From the NCBI RefSeq assembly GCF_003334785.1, contig NZ_QOWV01000002.1: a stretch of DNA of 64,000 bases; one strand, 5' to 3'. Origin of the DNA: Escherichia coli. Lineage in GTDB: Bacteria > Pseudomonadota > Gammaproteobacteria > Enterobacterales > Enterobacteriaceae. A program made the position numbers and the translations under genes. The first letter of the stretch is position 1. Each line of letters opens with the position of its first letter. Below the pieces are notes generated by a model. That model worked only from the letters and a program-made list of their open reading frames with translations. It was not told the DNA's origin and did not search any database. This document shows, in pieces, positions 470 through 29,759 of this stretch.

Positions 470-769
470 TTAACCAGTCTTTTGACCGGAGTGGGGCGAC
501 GTTGTTTCGTTTTGCCCAAAGTGTGCGAGAGCGGGCGCAATTTGCCCGGACTCAGGAGCGATCTGATTGGTCATGAACCATAAAGTGTATTTGGTGAATT
601 GTGGGGTCTGCAGGATGTTCATCATGACATCTGTTGGAGGTGTTGAACGACCACTTTCATAGTAACTCAGCGTGCCATACGGAACCCCTGTTAAATCAGC
701 AAGTTGTTGTCTGCTCAAATACTCTGATTTTCGCATTAAGACTATCTTCTCGCTTATCGTGTTTGACAT
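470..769 (-). CDS. C: P2 immunity repressor C (99 aa)
   Basis: 99-aa ORF MSNTISEKIVLMRKSEYLSRQQLADLTGVPYGTLSYYESG... with HTH; size, sequence and position (between int and cox) match P2 C. Confidence 0.85.
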   Translation of the reverse strand: MSNTISEKIVLMRKSEYLSRQQLADLTGVPYGTLSYYESGRSTPPTDVMMNILQTPQFTKYTLWFMTNQIAPESGQIAPALAHFGQNETTSPHSGQKTG

Positions 770-883
770 GGTGTTTAGATCTCAATAGTATTTAGTTTAG
801 ATGTAGATTGTTTAGTGCTTGGATGTGGGCACTAAAAGGCATTATAAGACATTAAACGCAATTCATGAGGGCTAGAGGACGAC
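770..883. promoter_or_regulatory. Divergent Pc/Pe early control region with C operator direct repeats (TTTAGAT at 774-780 and 796-802, 22 bp apart)
   Basis: Intergenic region between divergent C and cox; two direct TTTAGATNT repeats spaced 22 bp centre to centre, as described for the P2 operator. Confidence 0.5.
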
Positions 884-1030
884 ATGAGCAAGCAAGTAAC
901 ACTCATGACTGATGCGATTCCTTATCAGGAGTTCGCAAAACTAATAGGAAAATCGACATGAAGTGGTTTACTGAATTTGGCCACCTGAACAGAGGTGATA
1001 TGCTCACCTCAGAACAACACAGGTGCCATA

Positions 1031-2178
<1,148 letters not shown>

Positions 2179-2398
2179 CTCGGTGGCCAGTTTTTGTTGA
2201 CCACTTCAACAGGAGCGGTTCGTCGGATGATCGATAAAGGAAAGCTGCCTGTAATTGATATGACCGATCCACAATCAGCTTCAGGTCGTGCAGGTGAATA
2301 TTGGGTATACCTTCCGGCATGGAATAACGGACTAAAACTGGCTTATGAAAGCCGCCCTAAAGAGATTCGTGACGGCTGGTTGATGTGGTTAGGTCTCG

Positions 2399-2593
2399 GT
2401 GAACCACGTTAAGGAGAACCGTATGAATGAGCCTCGTTGTATTGCTCAGTTACTGCGTAACGAAAGCCCCAGGGCGATTGACTTCACCATCACCCACGGT
2501 AAGGGGCGTAAGGGAATCATTATCCGCACCAAAAAACAGAGTCCGTTAAAAAAGGCTCTGACCTTTCTGAAAAGCCGGAGGGTATGGAAATGA
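2399..2593 (+). CDS. Small early-operon protein (P2 orf78 position)
   Basis: ORF directly after cox and before B; synteny with P2 early operon. Start uncertain. Confidence 0.45.
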   Translation: MNHVKENRMNEPRCIAQLLRNESPRAIDFTITHGKGRKGIIIRTKKQSPLKKALTFLKSRRVWK

Positions 2594-3090
2594 CAGTGAT
2601 GACGCTCAATCTCGTTGAAAAACAGCCAGCAGCTATGCGCCGGATAATTGGTAAGCATCTTGCCGTTCCTCGCTGGCAGGATACATGTGATTATTATAAT
2701 CAGATGATGGAGCGCGAACGGTTAACGGTTTGCTTCCATGCTCAGTTAAAACAGCGTCACGCAACGATGTGTTTTGAAGAAATGAACGACGTCGAACGTG
2801 AACGACTGGTATGTGCAATTGATGAATTGCGTGGGGCATTCTCAAAACGCCGTCAGGTTGGCGCAAGTGAGTATGCATATATTAGTTTTTTAACAGTCAG
2901 TCAGCGTCGTACTTTATTTATGCATGCCGGATTGACTGAAAAAGAATTCAACCAGCCATACTGGCGAATTAATGAAGAATCATGTTACTGGCGTGATGCT
3001 TTATTCCGTGCATTACGTGAATTATTCAGCCTGTTTGAGTATGCACCGACAATTCTGACGTCGGTAAAACCAGAGCAATATCTGCATTAA
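2590..3090 (+). CDS. B: P2 B protein (replication, helicase-loading function)
   Basis: MTVMTLNLVEKQPAAMRRIIGKHLAVPRWQDTCDYYNQMMERERL...; 166 aa from this start; position between cox and A. Confidence 0.75.
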   Translation: MTVMTLNLVEKQPAAMRRIIGKHLAVPRWQDTCDYYNQMMERERLTVCFHAQLKQRHATMCFEEMNDVERERLVCAIDELRGAFSKRRQVGASEYAYISFLTVSQRRTLFMHAGLTEKEFNQPYWRINEESCYWRDALFRALRELFSLFEYAPTILTSVKPEQYLH

Positions 3091-3153
3091 GTAATTAACC
3101 AGAGTTTTTAACGCACTTAATCGTGCGGGGCTTCTTTTTGCCTGGAGAAAGTC

Positions 3154-3378
3154 ATGCATACAGTTTCTGAAAATCAGTGCGGTAAATTCGCATTACTGCT
3201 GCAACAGGCCAGAACCGAAGCACAGGCCGACGCTGCGACGCGCTTTTCTTCTCATCTTGACGCCATGATTCGCCACATCACAAAGGCGGAGTTATCCCGA
3301 GTGGAGATAGTCGAGCTGCTCAGTCAGGAGTCGGAAAAATTTCACAATATCGGATTGTCTCGCGGGGAGGTGCTTTGA
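3154..3378 (+). CDS. Hypothetical early protein (P2 orf80 position)
   Basis: ORF with RBS-like spacing in early operon; synteny only. Confidence 0.45.
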
Positions 3379-3680
3379 TGTCCTGTTCTCATTCAGTTGT
3401 ATTACTGAATAACGCCTTAAAAATCGCCGTTATGGAAAATGGCGATTTGTCTCTTATTCAACTTTGTCTTGATAAAGAAAAACGCGACATCACTGAATCT
3501 GTTATCGCGATTTATCAGAATGAATTAAACCTCCTGTCTGATGTGGTCAATTTACTTGTTAAACGCGCTGTATTCCACAAGCAAATTTCCTCCGTGGATG
3601 AACTGACAAAATTAACGACAGAACTTGCCAGTTATTGCGCTGATGTATCCAGGAAACTTAACGATAAAAGGAGCTGGTAA
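3375..3680 (+). CDS. Hypothetical early protein (P2 orf81 position)
   Basis: Start overlaps previous stop (ATGA coupling); synteny only. Confidence 0.45.
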
Positions 3681-3904
3681 TGCCGGACAACGTAGATTTT
3701 ATTCAGGAACAACAGGCTGAATTACTGGAGCGCCAGATTAACGCGGCAAGGGTAAAACATTGCGGTGCTTCTGCGCTGGTTTGCGAAGAGTGTGACGCGC
3801 CAATACCTGCTGCCCGTCGTGCGGCTTACCCGTCAGCCACGCGTTGTGTTTCCTGTCAGTCAGTCTTTGAAGCAAAAAACAAACATTACCGGAGAACGGC
3901 ATGA
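3680..3904 (+). CDS. TraR/DksA-family C4 zinc-finger protein (P2 orf82 position)
   Basis: CEECDAPIPAARRAAYPSATRCVSCQ four-cysteine motif in a 74-aa protein. Confidence 0.6.
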   Translation: MPDNVDFIQEQQAELLERQINAARVKHCGASALVCEECDAPIPAARRAAYPSATRCVSCQSVFEAKNKHYRRTA

Positions 3905-4176
3905 GTATTCGTATTGAAATTGGCGAACGTTATGTCGTTACCAGTGACAGCTTTCAGTTTATTCTCCACGAGAAAAAGAGAGCGGAAAGCGGTAAAAACG
4001 CCGGTCAGGAATGGCTGGCGGTGGTTGGTTATTACCCGAAATTAAGCCAGCTCGTTTCCGGCCTGATGCATCACGATATTCTGACCGGAAGCGCAAAGTC
4101 TTTTGCTGATTTAAACGCGCAGGTTGAGCAACTCAGCAAGCGTTGTTCAGAGGCTTTTGGCTCATATGGCCGTTAA
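3901..4176 (+). CDS. Hypothetical early protein (P2 orf83 position)
   Basis: ORF overlapping A start; synteny only. Confidence 0.45.
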   Translation: MSIRIEIGERYVVTSDSFQFILHEKKRAESGKNAGQEWLAVVGYYPKLSQLVSGLMHHDILTGSAKSFADLNAQVEQLSKRCSEAFGSYGR

Positions 4177-6451
4177 AGCCTCCGGGCGTTTTGTCCCTCC
4201 GTCAGCATTTGCTGCAGGCACCGGTAAGGCGTTTACCGGTGCTTATGCATGGAACGCGCCACGCGAGGCTGTCGGGCGCGAAAGACCCCTTACACGTGAC
4301 GAGATGCGTCAGGTGCAAGGTGTTTTATCCACGATTAACCGCCTGCCTTACTTTTTGCGCTCGCTGTTTACGTCACGCTATGACTACATCCGGCGCAATA
4401 AAAGCCCGGTGCACGGGTTTTATTTCCTCACATCCACTTTTCAGCGTCGTTTATGGCCGCGCATTGAGCGTGTGAATCAGCGCCATGAAATGAACACCGA
4501 CGCGTCGAAGCTGTTTCTGGCTGAGCGTGACCACTATGCGCGCCTGCCGGGAATGAATGACAAGGAGCTGAAAAAGTTTGCCGCCCGTATCTCATCGCAG
4601 CTTTTCATGATGTATGAGGAACTCAGCGATGCCTGGGTGGATGCGCATGGCGAGAAAGAATCGCTGTTTACGGATGAGGCGCAGGCTCACCTCTATGGTC
4701 ATGTTGCTGGCGCTGCACGTGCTTTCAATATTTCCCCGCTTTACTGGAAAAAATACCGTAAAGGACAGATGACCACGAGGCAGGCATATTCTGCAATTGC
4801 CCGTCTGTTTAACGATGAGTGGTGGACTCATCAGCTTAAAGGCCAGCGTATGCGCTGGCATGAAGCGTTACTGATAGCTGTCGGGGAGGTCAATAAAGAC
4901 CGTTCTCCTTATGCCAGTAAACACGCCATTCGTGATGTGCGTGCGCGCCGCCAGGCAAATCTGGAATTTCTTAAATCGTGTGACCTTGAAAACAGGGAAA
5001 CCGGCGAGCGCATCGACCTTATCAGTAAGGTGATGGGCAGTATTTCTAATCCTGAAATTCGCCGGATGGAGCTGATGAACACCATTGCCGGTATTGAGCG
5101 TTACGCCGCCGCAGAGGGTGATGTGGGGATGTTTATCACGCTGACCGCGCCGTCAAAGTATCACCCGACACGTCAGGTCAGAAAAGGCGAAAGTAAAACC
5201 GTTCAGCTAAATTACGGCTGGAACGATGAGGCATTTAATCCAAAGGATGCGCAGCGTTATCTCTGCCGTATCTGGAGCCTGATGCGCACGGCATTCAAGG
5301 ATAATGACTTACAGGTCTACGGTTTGCGTGTCGTCGAGCCACACCACGACGGAACGCCGCACTGGCATATGATGCTTTTTTGTAATCCACGCCAGCGTAA
5401 CCAGATTATTGAAATCATGCGTCGCTACGCGCTCAAAGAGGATGGAGACGAAAGAGGAGCTGCGCGAAACCGTTTTCAGGCAAAACACCTTAACCGGGGC
5501 GGTGCTGCGGGGTATATCGCGAAATACATCTCAAAAAACATCGATGGCTATGCACTGGATGGTCAGCTCGATAACGACACCGGCAGGCCGCTGAAAGACA
5601 CAGCCGCGGCTGTTACCGCATGGGCGTCAACGTGGCGCATACCACAATTTAAAACGGTTGGCCTGCCGACAATGGGGGCTTACCGTGAACTACGCAAATT
5701 GCCCCGCGGCGTCAGCATTGCTGATGAGTTTGACGAGCGCGTCGAGGCTGCACGCGCCGCCGCAGACAGTGGTGATTTTGCGCTGTATATCAGCGCGCAG
5801 GGCGGGGCAAATGTCCCGCGCGATTGTCAGACTGTCAGGGTCGCCCGTAGTCCGTCGGATGACGTTAACGAGTACGAGGAAGAAGTCGAGAGAGTGGTCG
5901 GCATTTACGCGCCGCATCTCGGCGCGCGTCATATTCATATCACCAGAACGACGGACTGGCACATTGTGCCGAAAGTTCCGGTCGTTGAGCCTTTGACTTT
6001 AAAAAGCGGCATCGCCGCGCCTCGGAGTCCTGTCAATAACTGTGGAAAACTCACCGGTGGTGATACTTCGTTACCGGCTCCCACACCTTCTGAGCACGCC
6101 GCAGCAGTGCTTAATCTGGTTGATGACGGTGTTATCGAATGGAGTGACCCGGAGGTCGTGAGGGCGCTCAGAGGTGCATTAAAACACGGTCGGAGAACGC
6201 CAAGTCGTCAGCAAAGAAACGGAAGCCCGTTAAAACCACATGAAATTGCACCATCGGCCAGACTGACCCGGTCGGAAAGAATGCAAATTACCCGTATCCG
6301 CGTTGACCTTGCTCAGAACGGTATCAGGCCGCAGCGATGGGAGCTTGAGGCGCTGGCGCGTGGCGCGACCGTAAATTATGACGGGAAAAAATTCACGTAT
6401 CCGGTCGCTGATGAGTGGCCGGGATTCTCAACAGTAATGGAGTGGACATGA
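4166..6451 (+). CDS. A: P2 A protein, rolling-circle replication initiation endonuclease (761 aa)
   Basis: MAVKASGRFVPPSAFAAGTG... with HUH-type motif region (PHWHMMLF) and active-site Tyr region (GYIAKYISK); length and sequence match P2 gpA as recalled. Confidence 0.85.
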   Translation: MAVKASGRFVPPSAFAAGTGKAFTGAYAWNAPREAVGRERPLTRDEMRQVQGVLSTINRLPYFLRSLFTSRYDYIRRNKSPVHGFYFLTSTFQRRLWPRIERVNQRHEMNTDASKLFLAERDHYARLPGMNDKELKKFAARISSQLFMMYEELSDAWVDAHGEKESLFTDEAQAHLYGHVAGAARAFNISPLYWKKYRKGQMTTRQAYSAIARLFNDEWWTHQLKGQRMRWHEALLIAVGEVNKDRSPYASKHAIRDVRARRQANLEFLKSCDLENRETGERIDLISKVMGSISNPEIRRMELMNTIAGIERYAAAEGDVGMFITLTAPSKYHPTRQVRKGESKTVQLNYGWNDEAFNPKDAQRYLCRIWSLMRTAFKDNDLQVYGLRVVEPHHDGTPHWHMMLFCNPRQRNQIIEIMRRYALKEDGDERGAARNRFQAKHLNRGGAAGYIAKYISKNIDGYALDGQLDNDTGRPLKDTAAAVTAWASTWRIPQFKTVGLPTMGAYRELRKLPRGVSIADEFDERVEAARAAADSGDFALYISAQGGANVPRDCQTVRVARSPSDDVNEYEEEVERVVGIYAPHLGARHIHITRTTDWHIVPKVPVVEPLTLKSGIAAPRSPVNNCGKLTGGDTSLPAPTPSEHAAAVLNLVDDGVIEWSDPEVVRALRGALKHGRRTPSRQQRNGSPLKPHEIAPSARLTRSERMQITRIRVDLAQNGIRPQRWELEALARGATVNYDGKKFTYPVADEWPGFSTVMEWT

Positions 6452-6777
6452 TGGCAAAAATTCACGAGGTAAAGCTGCACGCAAAATATTTCGACCTTGT
6501 ACTGGAAGGAAAGAAACGCGCAGAGTTTCGGAAAAAAGATCGTAATTATGAGCGCGGGGGCACGTTGATTTTGCATGAATGGGTGCAGGGTGTGTTTACG
6601 GGGCGAAAGGTTGAAGCCCGGATAACAGATGTTACTGACCTGTCAGACTGGCTGGAAGATTATGTCTTGCTGCACAGAATACTAGGTGAGATACTGCCGC
6701 TGACTGTCAAGCTGGCAGTATCCTCCACATTTTTTATAAATCTAAGGCGAAGAACGGTGGCAATATATTTGCTTTAA
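6448..6777 (+). CDS. Hypothetical protein (P2 orf91 position)
   Basis: MAKIHEVKLHAKYFDLVLEGKKRAEFRKKDRNYERGG...; start overlaps A stop; follows A as in P2. Confidence 0.5.
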   Translation: MMAKIHEVKLHAKYFDLVLEGKKRAEFRKKDRNYERGGTLILHEWVQGVFTGRKVEARITDVTDLSDWLEDYVLLHRILGEILPLTVKLAVSSTFFINLRRRTVAIYLL

Positions 6778-6815: not shown

Positions 6816-7577
6816 TCAATTGAGTATCGATTTTCGTTCGAATATAACCATAACGCCAAGCGTCAAATGTAAGTCATCTATATGTGATTCGTATTCATAT
6901 TGGTCAGCATCAGGAGGTAGTAAATGCTCTGCTGCTGTAAAAACATCAATTGTAACAGATATATCGTCTGGAATTTCTTCATTTAATTCGGATATGTATT
7001 TTTTATATTTGTTTTTTAATTTCCTTATCATGTCTTCCTTATGGTGGATTGTAGTGCAGTAATTTTTTTTAGTTGAATCATTGTATGAATGGAATGAACA
7101 GTTTAATGCTAGGCCAAGACTTGAATTTCCTGTAGGGCCTGTGTGTTTAAAGTATTCAAGATTTCTTCTTATGTCAGAAAATAAAAGACTTTTACAGGGG
7201 GCATTTCCTTTAACTTCTATTGCACATATTGGAATGTCGAAAAATGGTCTGCTGTCCAATATGGCAATATCAATTCTGCCTGATCTTGTTGTGTTTGTGT
7301 TTTTTCTGACAGTTTTTTTTGAGAATGTTTTTTGGGGGTCAGACCGTTTCGATAAAGGAACTGTTGCATTAATGAATTTATTTGTATGGTACTCAAATAT
7401 AACTTTGTAATCACCATGGCGAAAAGATTTTATTTCTAACAACGATAGACCTATAGATACGGTAGCTACATATTCAGTGTTTATTTTTGCACCAGACCTG
7501 AAATCCATTAAATAAGTTGCGTCGGCTGACTTTTTCATTCCATCTTTTACAGCTTTCACAATATCCATGTTATTCAT
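6816..7577 (-). CDS. tin: Tin-like protein (253 aa), the P2 T-even phage inhibition function
   Basis: 253-aa AT-rich ORF immediately downstream of old in the A-to-cos hotspot, the position of tin in P2. Identity rests on synteny and recalled size, not on a recognised motif. Confidence 0.55.
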   Translation of the reverse strand: MNNMDIVKAVKDGMKKSADATYLMDFRSGAKINTEYVATVSIGLSLLEIKSFRHGDYKVIFEYHTNKFINATVPLSKRSDPQKTFSKKTVRKNTNTTRSGRIDIAILDSRPFFDIPICAIEVKGNAPCKSLLFSDIRRNLEYFKHTGPTGNSSLGLALNCSFHSYNDSTKKNYCTTIHHKEDMIRKLKNKYKKYISELNEEIPDDISVTIDVFTAAEHLLPPDADQYEYESHIDDLHLTLGVMVIFERKSILN

Positions 7578-7751: not shown

Positions 7752-9512
7752 TTAAATCCATTTTATGAAATCTTCCATTTCATCATATTTTTTTATTACT
7801 GCTCTAACATCTTTGCTTTCATCACATAAACAATCTAAAAGACTATCCCATTCAGTTTGTTTTTTACCAAATCCATAAACAGCCTCTATATCACCGGATT
7901 TCCATATATAGATTCCGTTATCTTTCAATTTTTGATGTATTTCATGTATATGCTTTTGTGTTTTTTCATGGTTACATATTTTGATGAAGTCTTTGCTTGA
8001 AATGCTTTTGAATGACTCAAAAGTAGTAACTTTTGTATTTAAACTAAGCTCTCCTGAGTTGATTGATTCAATCAAAGCAGTCAATAGATTATCACATTCA
8101 GTACTAAGTAAGTCTTTATGCTCTGTTAATAGAATATTTGATAAGAAATCACAATCAGCTAGAATCCTTGTTTTTATGCCGATGGCATTGATGATTTGTG
8201 ACATCTTAAATAAACTACCCTTACCGTCAACGGCAACAATGCAGATTTTACTCGGGTTGAGTTCATGTCCGTTAATTTTTTTATAAAGTGCATATAGAAC
8301 GTTTGTCTCTGTTTTCCCTTCAACAAGCAAAACTTCTTCAGAAAATAAAAGGTATGATGAATTAGAAAGCGTGAATGCTGAGTGCAATTGCGGTGATGAA
8401 GATTTATATAATTCTTCGATTTTTTCAGATATAGTCTTCCTTGCTATGGTTCCATTAGAATCCTTACAAACCTGAATCGCATTTGCTGCATGCTTTGCAG
8501 AAAGCATACTGGCTGAGTGAGTTGATATTATAACCTGATACCCTGATTCACTTAATGTGACAAGTGATTCTCTGACAGAATTAATGGCTGAAGGGTGTAA
8601 ATATAACTCAGGTTCATCAATGAAAATCAAAGTGTTTGATTTTTTTGATTCGCTGTTTTCTTTTTTTATTTCGGCCAGGTATTGAATTAATGCCATTTGA
8701 ATGGAACGTTGTGTTCCGTGACCAAATCGGCTGATATCTCTCATTACCGGTTCATCTTCCCGAGACTCAAAAACTTTCAGAGTGCCGGATTTAAATATCT
8801 CATCTAATGTCGGTGTGGGAAAGTGTAACTTTACACTTACGTCGGGAAAAAATTGGTTTACTTTTTTATTTACGCCTGAGTCTATTTTATTAAGGCTTTC
8901 TAATCTGTTCTCACCGTTGTGAGAAAGATATTTACCTATTTCTGATATGTTTTTTGAAAATTTTTCTTCGTGTTCTTGTTTTATTTCAGAAACAATTGCG
9001 GAAAGTATCTTTCCTATTGTGGTCGTGTTTTTGCATTTTGTTGAGTCTTCGACAGCGTCAGACATTGCAGGGATATGAATTGGTTCCGGAAATATATTGG
9101 AGATTGCACCATCTATGCCGCCAGGGTTTTTCTTCCACGTGGTACCGTCATATACATCCAGACTTTTTTTGGCTTTTCCTGTTTCCTTATTAAATTCCTG
9201 TCTTCTTGCAAAGGTAAGAGTCCCGTCAATTATAAACGGAGCTATTTTTTGTTGATTCTCTTCTGTTAACAAAGACAGAGTATCATCTGTTATACCTTGA
9301 ATAACGCCTTCAACGGATACGGGGTGTGTAGGATCGTACACATCTGATTCTGAAATCAAAGAGCCATCTAACAGCCACTTAATTGCTAAGATAATATTTG
9401 ATTTTCCTGCGTTATTATAACCAACTAAAGCAGTGAAGGGGCGCAAAATAGCCGATGTTGACTTACAAGAACGAAAGTTGCTAATTGAAACTGAAGCAAG
9501 ACGTACAGTCAT
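7752..9512 (-). CDS. old: Old exclusion protein: OLD-family ATPase/nuclease (586 aa)
   Basis: Walker A LVGYNNAGKSN near the N-terminus, Walker B-like LIFIDEPELYLHP mid-protein, C-terminal nuclease-type region; 586 aa and position next to cos match P2 Old. Confidence 0.8.
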   Translation of the reverse strand: MTVRLASVSISNFRSCKSTSAILRPFTALVGYNNAGKSNIILAIKWLLDGSLISESDVYDPTHPVSVEGVIQGITDDTLSLLTEENQQKIAPFIIDGTLTFARRQEFNKETGKAKKSLDVYDGTTWKKNPGGIDGAISNIFPEPIHIPAMSDAVEDSTKCKNTTTIGKILSAIVSEIKQEHEEKFSKNISEIGKYLSHNGENRLESLNKIDSGVNKKVNQFFPDVSVKLHFPTPTLDEIFKSGTLKVFESREDEPVMRDISRFGHGTQRSIQMALIQYLAEIKKENSESKKSNTLIFIDEPELYLHPSAINSVRESLVTLSESGYQVIISTHSASMLSAKHAANAIQVCKDSNGTIARKTISEKIEELYKSSSPQLHSAFTLSNSSYLLFSEEVLLVEGKTETNVLYALYKKINGHELNPSKICIVAVDGKGSLFKMSQIINAIGIKTRILADCDFLSNILLTEHKDLLSTECDNLLTALIESINSGELSLNTKVTTFESFKSISSKDFIKICNHEKTQKHIHEIHQKLKDNGIYIWKSGDIEAVYGFGKKQTEWDSLLDCLCDESKDVRAVIKKYDEMEDFIKWI

Positions 9513-15647: not shown

Positions 15648-16076
15648 GTGAGGGTGACCGGACTTATTGAATCGCTGTCACCGTCAGGGCGTCGGCGACT
15701 GAGCGCCGAACTGGCGAAACGTCTGCGGCAGAGTCAGCAGCGCCGGGTGATGGCACAGAAAGCCCCGGACGGCACACCCTACGCACCACGCCAGCAGCAG
15801 AGCGCCAGAAAAAAGACCGATCGCGTTAAGCGAAAAATGTTTGCGAAACTTATCACCAGTCGTTTTTTGCATATCCGCGCCAGCCCGGAACAGGCATCAA
15901 TGGAGTTTTTCGGCGGGAAGTCACCGAAAATCGCCAGCGTGCATCAGTTCGGTCTGTCGGAAGAAACCCGGAAAGACGGTAAGAAAATTGATTATCCGGC
16001 GCGTCCTCTGCTCGGCTTTACCGGTGAGGATGTGCAGATGATTGAAGAGATTATCCTGGCTCACCTTGAGCGTTAG
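15648..16076 (+). CDS. L: Head completion protein gpL (GTG start assumed)
   Basis: ORF in the same frame directly after M; last recognisable P2 head gene before the replaced segment. Confidence 0.7.
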   Translation: MRVTGLIESLSPSGRRRLSAELAKRLRQSQQRRVMAQKAPDGTPYAPRQQQSARKKTDRVKRKMFAKLITSRFLHIRASPEQASMEFFGGKSPKIASVHQFGLSEETRKDGKKIDYPARPLLGFTGEDVQMIEEIILAHLER

Positions 16077-18908: not shown

Positions 18909-19512
18909 TTCGCGACTGCTGCCGACTGGCTCATCACCGCTTGAAGTCGCCGCCGCAAAAGCCTGTGCGGAAATTGAAAAAACGCCGGTCAGTATTCGTG
19001 AGCTGTGGAACCCGGACACCTGCCCGGCAAATCTGCTGCCGTGGCTGGCGTGGTCATTTTCGGTCGACAGGTGGGATGATAAGTGGCCGGAAGCGACAAA
19101 ACGCGCTGTTATCCGCGATGCGTATTTCATTCACTGCCATAAGGGCACTATTGGTGCGATTCGCCGTGTGGTGGAGCCGCTCGGCTATCTGATTGAGGTG
19201 AGGGAGTGGTGGCAGCTCAACGAGGAGCCGGGGACGTTCCGCATCGTTGTTGGCGTGCTTGAGCAGGGTATTACCGAGGAAATGTATCAGGAGCTGGAGC
19301 GCCTCGTTGCTGATGCAAAACCGGCGAGCCGCCATCTGACGGGACTGGCTATCAGTTTAAGTACAACCGGCAACATTTTTGCCGGTGCGGGATGCTATCA
19401 CGGTGACGCCCTGACGGTTTATCCCTACACCCCGGAGGCCATTATTGTCGGAGGGGATTATTTCCCGGCCTCGGCCATTCATTTAATTGATAACCTGAGA
19501 GTAAACGCATGA
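18901..19512 (+). CDS. I: Baseplate protein gpI
   Basis: MSDSRLLPTGSSPLEVAAAKACAEIEKTPVSIRELWNPDTCPANLLPWLAW...; order J-I-H. Confidence 0.8.
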   Translation: MSDSRLLPTGSSPLEVAAAKACAEIEKTPVSIRELWNPDTCPANLLPWLAWSFSVDRWDDKWPEATKRAVIRDAYFIHCHKGTIGAIRRVVEPLGYLIEVREWWQLNEEPGTFRIVVGVLEQGITEEMYQELERLVADAKPASRHLTGLAISLSTTGNIFAGAGCYHGDALTVYPYTPEAIIVGGDYFPASAIHLIDNLRVNA

Positions 19513-29588: not shown

Positions 29589-29615
29589 AAAAAATAAGCC
29601 CGTGTAAGGGAGATT
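29589..29615. other. Prophage attachment core (attR), AAAAAATAAGCCCGTGTAAGGGAGATT
   Basis: 27-bp sequence matching the P2 att core as I recall it; coincides with the terminator/3' end of cyaR. Confidence 0.6.
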
Positions 29616-29675
29616 ACACAGGCTAAGGAGGTGGTTCCTGGTACAGCTAGCATTTTATGGGTTATGTTTTTCAGC
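29589..29675 (-). ncRNA. cyaR: CyaR (RyeE) Hfq-dependent sRNA
   Basis: Reverse complement reads GCTGAAAAACATAACCCATAAAATGCTAGCTGTACCAGGAACCACCTCCTTAGCCTGTGTAATCTCCCTTACACGGGCTTATTTTTT, the CyaR sequence as recalled, with terminator hairpin and U-tract. Confidence 0.85.
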
Positions 29676-29759
29676 GAAACGGATGATAACCTTAATAAAT
29701 GCAGCTGTATGTGATCGGTTTCTAAGAATTTTCCATCCGGGAAAAATAATCGAAATTAA

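Follow-up and report, generated by a model that had tools for sequence, protein, structure and literature searches.

Does the small zinc-finger gene in the early operon of this prophage encode a regulator that acts directly on the host RNA polymerase, and does it give the phage a route to the enzyme separate from that of the late activator Ogr? The first-pass annotation had proposed both, having read in a 74-aa open reading frame the CEEC...CVSC motif of the TraR/DksA-type secondary-channel binders. These proposals were followed up in a window of 64,000 nucleotides, the whole stretch of Escherichia coli DNA that was analysed. The gene proves to be orf82 of phage P2. Its product is a TraR-like secondary-channel regulator, already known from biochemical work on the identical protein.

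Identity of orf82 and its place in the TraR family

The 74-aa open reading frame with its two cysteine pairs is present on the + strand at 3680..3904. Direct reading of the sequence places a Shine-Dalgarno GGAG at 3670..3673 (+), 6 nt 5′ of the ATG. The start codon has one base in common with the stop codon of orf81 (TAATG, 3678-3682), and at the other end the stop codon TGA runs into the orf83 ATG (ATGA, 3901-3904), as is characteristic of phage operons with translational coupling. The motif cysteines are C35 and C38 (CEEC) and C56 and C59 (CVSC), in the spacing CEEC-N17-CVSC; a fifth cysteine, C28, is not part of the motif. The protein is identical to phage P2 Orf82 (NP_046793 / AAD03304) at 74/74 residues, there are no differences from P2 orf82 in 225 nt of DNA, and the gene occupies the same place between orf81 and orf83. 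Positions 2400-6500 of the window match phage P2 at 97.5% identity over their full length and, judged by sequence, the DNA around orf82 is a P2-type prophage. Relatives of orf82 were found in 166 phage records at E<=1e-5 (tblastn), and an exhaustive search of cluster representatives returned 665 at E<=0.001. Given these numbers and the identity to P2 in both protein and DNA, orf82 is a real conserved gene and not a chance reading frame. The RefSeq product name of P2 orf82 is 'DksA-like zinc-finger protein', whilst other depositors have named close copies 'TraR/YbiI family protein', 'traR' or 'dksA'. A tblastn search of the window with Orf82 and TraR as queries matched only 3680-3901, and no second TraR/DksA-like gene was found there.

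Profile searches place the protein in the TraR family. Orf82 passes the NCBIfam model TIGR02419 (phage/conjugal plasmid C-4 type zinc finger protein, TraR family) with 78.3 bits against a cutoff of 59.7, the match spanning profile positions 1-64 of 64. It also matches Pfam PF01258 (zf-dskA_traR; E 4.6e-11) and PHROG 54, 'DksA-like zinc-finger protein' (E 1.5e-32). Among PDB sequences the best matches are to F-plasmid TraR (5w1s_M, E 8.9e-10; 6n57_M, 1.6e-09), followed by YbiI (2kgo, 1.4e-07) and then, weakly, by DksA-type proteins. Orf82 does not belong to any of the narrower equivalog groups. It scores below the cutoff for conjugal TraR (NF010268, 43.2 bits vs 108) and does not lie in a tra operon, and it likewise falls below the DksA models TIGR02420 and NF033459 (20.0 bits vs 115.5 and 27.7 vs 105) and the YbiI-type model NF008243 (47.1 bits vs 96).

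The structure was predicted with AlphaFold2 from an alignment of 59 full-length diverse homologs out of the 665 representatives. The model has a mean pLDDT of 83 and helices at 4-24, 44-49 and 57-73, with a zinc-ribbon globule lying between the N-terminal helix and the C-terminal one. Its top Foldseek matches in the PDB are to TraR in RNA polymerase complexes (6n57_M, 5w1s_M/N; probability 1.00, TM 0.55-0.65), and the next are YbiI and then DksA (7khi, 5vsw, 1tjl), including DksA bound to polymerase. The first-pass annotation had made its proposal depend on structural similarity to TraR/DksA; this similarity was found, the best PDB matches of the model being TraR bound to polymerase. The assignment to the TraR/DksA type is thus borne out by TIGR02419, by PF01258, by the TraR sequences in the PDB and by Foldseek. 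Of the features that mark the TraR subfamily, Orf82 has the profile scores above threshold, the CxxC-N17-CxxC spacing, the three-element fold of ~73 residues, the aspartates D3 and D6 and the arginine pair; the alanine of the DxxDxA motif is the one that it lacks, having I8 in its place.

With this in mind, residues with roles reported for TraR (PMC9239242, PMC6970531) were mapped onto Orf82, and their conservation was taken from the 59-sequence alignment. The two DxxDxA aspartates, which are needed for TraR function, are retained at the same positions, D3 in 55/59 homologs and D6 in 56/59. TraR R48 and R49, which touch the beta-prime rim helices and Si3, correspond to Orf82 R46 (59/59) and R47 (52/59), and TraR E66 corresponds to E64 (58/59). 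The motif cysteines C35, C38 and C56 are found in 59/59 homologs and C59 in 58/59. The DxxDxA motif itself is imperfect (D3-N-V-D6-F-I8). At the position of TraR A8 the homologs have alanine in 36, valine in 10 and isoleucine in 5 of the 59, and the 'missing A8' of Orf82 was suggested by the authors of PMC9239242 as a possible part of the explanation for its ~5-fold weaker activity. Since Orf82 is still active with this residue missing (PMC9239242), I8 is no bar to membership of the TraR subfamily and the alanine is not strictly family-defining. TraR uses R49, E46 and K50 at the Si3 interface for activation (PMC6970531). Neither of the latter two is conserved: E46 corresponds to Orf82 A44 (E in 27/59 homologs) and K50 to A48 (K in 11/59). 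Two of the three central residues of this interface are therefore replaced in Orf82, and its mechanism of activation may differ in detail.

Action on RNA polymerase and relation to Ogr

The effect on rRNA promoters, which had been put forward as a check on the assignment, has been published for the identical protein and is positive. P2 Orf82 was among five TraR homologs tested by Gopalkrishnan et al. (2022, mBio 13:e00952-22; PMC9239242), where it inhibited rrnB P1 without ppGpp at an IC50 of ~250 nM, compared to ~50 nM for TraR. The purified protein competed with labelled DksA for polymerase at 0.65-1 uM, similarly to TraR (PMC9239242), and this competition shows that Orf82 occupies the DksA/TraR site on the enzyme. 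Transcription of thrABC and argI rose ~2-4-fold with some of the homologs, P2 Orf82 included, and a dksA-null strain of E. coli was complemented by induced Orf82 on minimal medium (PMC9239242). Overexpression of Orf82 leads to growth arrest according to Liu et al. (1993), as cited in PMC9239242. The authors proposed that phage TraR homologs serve to divert the host's transcription from making ribosomes while the phage grows lytically (PMC9239242). At the level of the phage, no phenotype of P2 orf82 is reported in the literature, lambda Orf73 being the only homolog to have been tested in a phage; the phage 186 homolog of orf82 is annotated as 'not essential'.

Taken together, we give a probability of about 0.9 to the explanation that the gene is P2 orf82 and that its product is a TraR-family protein acting directly on RNA polymerase without binding DNA. 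By homology to the cryo-EM structures of TraR, the N-terminal helix of Orf82 (~4-24, with D3 and D6) would extend through the secondary channel in the direction of the active site; the beta-prime rim helices and Si3 would carry the zinc-ribbon globule (C35/C38/C56/C59, R46/R47), and the C-terminal helix (57-73) would touch the beta lobe and Si1. Binding alters the conformation of the polymerase. The rRNA and ribosomal-protein promoters, whose open complexes are short-lived, are inhibited and those of the amino-acid-biosynthesis type stimulated, with ppGpp not needed for either. In P2, orf82 is transcribed from Pe along with the replication genes, and its presumed role would be to move host transcription off ribosome synthesis in lytic growth, to the likely benefit of P2.

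Amongst characterised relatives, F-plasmid TraR (PDB 5W1S, 6N57, 6N58) resembles Orf82 in size (73 vs 74 aa), in its three-element architecture and CxxC-N17-CxxC spacing, in the equivalents of D3, D6 and R48/R49, in its site on polymerase and in its independence of ppGpp. The two proteins share only 36-38% identity, however, and Orf82 differs further in having I for A8 and A for both E46 and K50, in falling below the NF010268 cutoff, in its ~5-fold weaker effect on rrnB P1 and in its genetic setting, a phage early/replication operon where TraR has a tra operon. Lambda Orf73 is likewise a phage-encoded TraR homolog; it is made early in the lytic cycle and inhibits the promoters of rRNA and r-protein genes, whereas no effect of it was seen on lambda promoters. 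Unlike Orf82, it keeps the DxxDxA motif perfect, carries six cysteines, is about as potent as TraR and activates little or not at all, and it has demonstrated phage phenotypes, namely a ~4-fold higher yield and slower host growth. E. coli DksA has the zinc-ribbon globular fold, the secondary-channel site and an acidic tip of the DxxDxA type in common with Orf82, but is a protein of 151 aa with a two-helix coiled coil that requires ppGpp for full activity, whereas Orf82 has a single N-terminal helix.

The second zinc-finger gene, ogr, lies at 29268..29486 (+) and encodes a late-gene activator, a 72-aa zinc-finger protein that scores 177.6 bits with NF007241 (cutoff 116) and is 100% identical to P2 Ogr; it lies where the first-pass annotation had placed a separate zinc-finger activator. 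Ogr activates the P2 late promoters, PP, PO, PV and PF, from upstream binding sites. Like Orf82, the P2 Ogr / P4 Delta family consists of small zinc-binding phage proteins that act through host RNA polymerase. Unlike Orf82, Ogr has a genetic link to the alpha subunit: according to King et al. (1992), as cited in PMC11434276, ogr mutations suppress the alpha-subunit mutation rpoA109 (L290H). The two routes to RNA polymerase that had been suggested are therefore real, Ogr acting via the alpha subunit (rpoA109 suppression) and Orf82 via the secondary channel at the DksA/TraR site; the reading is correct, but it is established knowledge and not new. We rejected the idea that the two zinc fingers are related, as their sequences show no similarity (E 0.95) and the Ogr cysteines (C4, C7, C30, C35) are spaced differently. 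The same findings bear on whether Orf82 could be a sequence-specific DNA-binding regulator of phage promoters, an activator or repressor in the manner of Ogr. In favour of this, Orf82 is small, has a C4 zinc finger and is encoded in a regulatory, early region, and the authors of PMC9239242 remarked that some TraR homologs could regulate the promoters of their own phage. Orf82, however, has neither similarity to Ogr nor a match to the Ogr/Delta model NF007241, and TraR and DksA both act without binding DNA, making such a role very improbable indeed.

The early operon and possible further roles

In the annotated P2 record the early operon runs Pe-cox-orf78-B-orf80-81-82-83-A, and the placement of the zinc-finger gene in an early operon was accordingly right for P2; in the present copy, a 1250-bp insertion sequence (IS) in cox interrupts the operon. 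The early promoter Pe (TTGACA-17-TAGTAT) was recovered by a promoter scan at 763..791 (+) and matches the annotated -35 and -10 of P2 Pe. A putative rho-independent terminator between B and orf80 (3112..3139, +; terminator scan) is the P2 feature 26980-27007. It is followed on the same strand by orf80 (3154..3378, +; DUF2732 family, assigned from PHROG 128, the P2 annotation and synteny), by orf81 (3378..3680, +), which has no assigned function and is translationally coupled to orf82, and, after orf82, by orf83 (3901..4176, +; DUF5405 family). The most diverged early gene relative to P2 is orf81, with 21 nt and 12 aa differences in 303 nt; orf82 has 0 differences, orf80 has 4 and gene A has 70 nt (17 aa). 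The pattern in orf81 suggests a recombination patch, or else relaxed or diversifying selection.

We also surveyed the neighbourhood of TraR-like genes in other phages. In every P2/186-type phage examined, a DUF2732 gene (orf80-like) lies 0-1 genes upstream of the TraR-like gene and usually overlaps; this was seen in the P2-type loci, 186, Fels-2, a Klebsiella phage and another 186-like contig. The downstream gene is variable in these phages (exonuclease, Dam methylase, DUF3850 or DUF5405). A Mu-like contig has a Tad2-like gene upstream of its TraR-like gene. DUF2732 as a universal companion of TraR-like genes was rejected, being absent from one Mu-like and one lambdoid context. The adjacency is confined to one phage family (Peduoviridae) and therefore may be inherited gene order. 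A survey with tighter alignment gave mostly near-identical relatives of P2 and added little diversity.

These neighbourhoods raise the question of whether Orf82 does more than TraR-like damping of rRNA synthesis, either with a conserved partner, for which the DUF2732 protein Orf80 is the candidate (compare QisA-TraR of VP882), or by tuning the promoters of P2 itself, such as the Ogr-dependent late promoters or the Pe/Pc switch. We think this unlikely. Were P2 promoters tuned in this way, two zinc-finger proteins would be functionally coupled on one RNA polymerase. The more specific proposal, that Orf82 acts in vivo in complex with Orf80, Orf81 or Orf83, draws on the TraR of phage VP882 (gp61). 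That protein is 36% identical to Orf82 and is, like it, translationally coupled to an upstream gene in a repressor-controlled early operon. It differs in working with QisA (gp60), the product of the upstream overlapping gene, and in being countered by QtiQ; VP882 TraR co-purifies with QisA, and the pair arrests growth far more than TraR alone (2026 preprint). The overlap of orf82 with both of its neighbours and the DUF2732 gene in every Peduoviridae locus examined would fit such a complex. Searches with gp60 against all P2 early proteins (BLASTP and phmmer, filters off) gave a best E of ~0.3, however, and a QisA-like partner was rejected at the level of sequence; the DUF2732 adjacency, missing from the Mu-like and lambdoid contexts, may be no more than inherited synteny, and purified Orf82 is active alone (PMC9239242). 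A complex of this kind seems to us quite improbable.

A role mainly in phage or host DNA replication, for example in clearing polymerase ahead of P2 rolling-circle replication or in depressing host initiation, would account for the position of orf82 within the replication module, between B and A. The order B-orf80-81-82-83-A was found in 76 of the 80 P2-type loci on viral contigs, the other four being cut at the end of the locus, and in the 186, Fels-2 and Klebsiella phages the TraR-like gene is directly upstream of the A-type replication gene cluster. Moreover, the lambda orf73 cluster was earlier implicated in inhibiting host replication initiation, and DksA is said to promote DNA replication. 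Against this, the PHROG labels 'replication initiation protein' on orf81 and orf83 are annotations only, and the demonstrated activities of Orf82 all concern transcription initiation. Replication as the main role is thus a rather doubtful proposition, yet it is compatible with direct action on transcription and does not exclude it.

State of this prophage copy

Compared to P2 the gene itself is unchanged and its context alone differs: the prophage around it is degraded, cox being broken by ISEc52 and ~3 kb with lysis and head/tail completion genes being deleted. The insertion (IS3 family, 1250 bp; 959..2208, +) lies between Pe and orf82, is flanked by a 3-bp target duplication ACA (956-958 and 2209-2211) and is 100% identical to copies annotated as ISEc52. 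The cox::IS junction was found in none of 5,426 complete E. coli genomes. The deletion covers ~3.0 kb of P2 (5950-8942) and maps to window positions ~15652-15657, where the junction shows a short TGA microhomology. From the BLAST map against P2 it takes out L, X, Y (holin), K (endolysin), lysA, lysB, lysC, R and the first codons of S, and the prophage should therefore be unable to lyse its host or to complete virions.

Further along, 19337-22804 has no match in P2 and replaces the region of the H C-terminus, G and fun(Z). Within it, 22225-22824 encodes a 199-aa serine recombinase with invertase-like NCBIfam matches, beside ORFs on the opposite strand at 21059-21661 and 21661-22203. The arrangement suggests an invertible tail-fibre cassette in the style of Mu/P1; a search for inverted repeats of at least 20 nt flanking the putative invertible segment found none. 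The P2 lysogenic-conversion genes tin (6816-7577, -) and old (7752-9512, -) are both intact, with 2 aa differences from P2 in Tin and 0 in Old. Their retention despite the loss of the lysis genes and cox is consistent with useful anti-phage genes being kept in a decaying prophage.

Is orf82 expressed from this copy? The C repressor is intact and 100% identical to P2 C, ISEc52 separates Pe from orf82, and the lysis genes are gone; for these reasons orf82 may never be expressed here, and in the lysogen it is probably silent. Between the IS and orf82 the promoter scan returned a single promoter-like site, a weak consensus match within gene B (2673-2700), and promoter-like sites are rarer than in shuffled sequence (2 vs a mean of 5.8). 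We considered, and rejected, a hybrid promoter pointing outward from the right end of the IS: no -10-like hexamer lies at a spacing of 16-18 bp from the outward TTGACC (2197-2202), and the promoter scan called none there. It must be set against this that the early ORFs downstream of the IS are all intact, with no internal stops, and that the transposase genes are oriented as Pe, so that read-through is possible. On balance we lean towards the gene being a silent passenger in a defective, repressed prophage, with neither Orf82 nor Ogr currently affecting the host RNA polymerase.

At its right end, where the match to the attP core stops at 29615, the prophage overlaps the gene for the CyaR/RyeE sRNA (29592-29677, -, 100.7 bits). 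Past CyaR lie yegQ, yegP, baeR and baeS, the ogrK region of the E. coli chromosome, a position that we take to be the classical P2 attachment site locI. The host flank also carries two tandem Sib RNA genes at 43037-43179 and 43366-43514 (-; 142 and 149.5 bits); Sib RNAs act as the antitoxins in type I toxin-antitoxin loci of the Ibs/Sib kind. A JUMPstart (ops-containing) element at 59328-59366 (+) lies upstream of a + strand operon from ~59545, an arrangement typical of RfaH-controlled polysaccharide gene clusters.

Lastly, for orf82 the question posed at the outset had already been taken up, and answered, with the identical protein, and the present check confirms the annotation. Its wider interest is that of the family: through TraR-family proteins, plasmids and phages impose a stringent-response-like programme on their hosts without ppGpp, and this bears on how phages take over the host.
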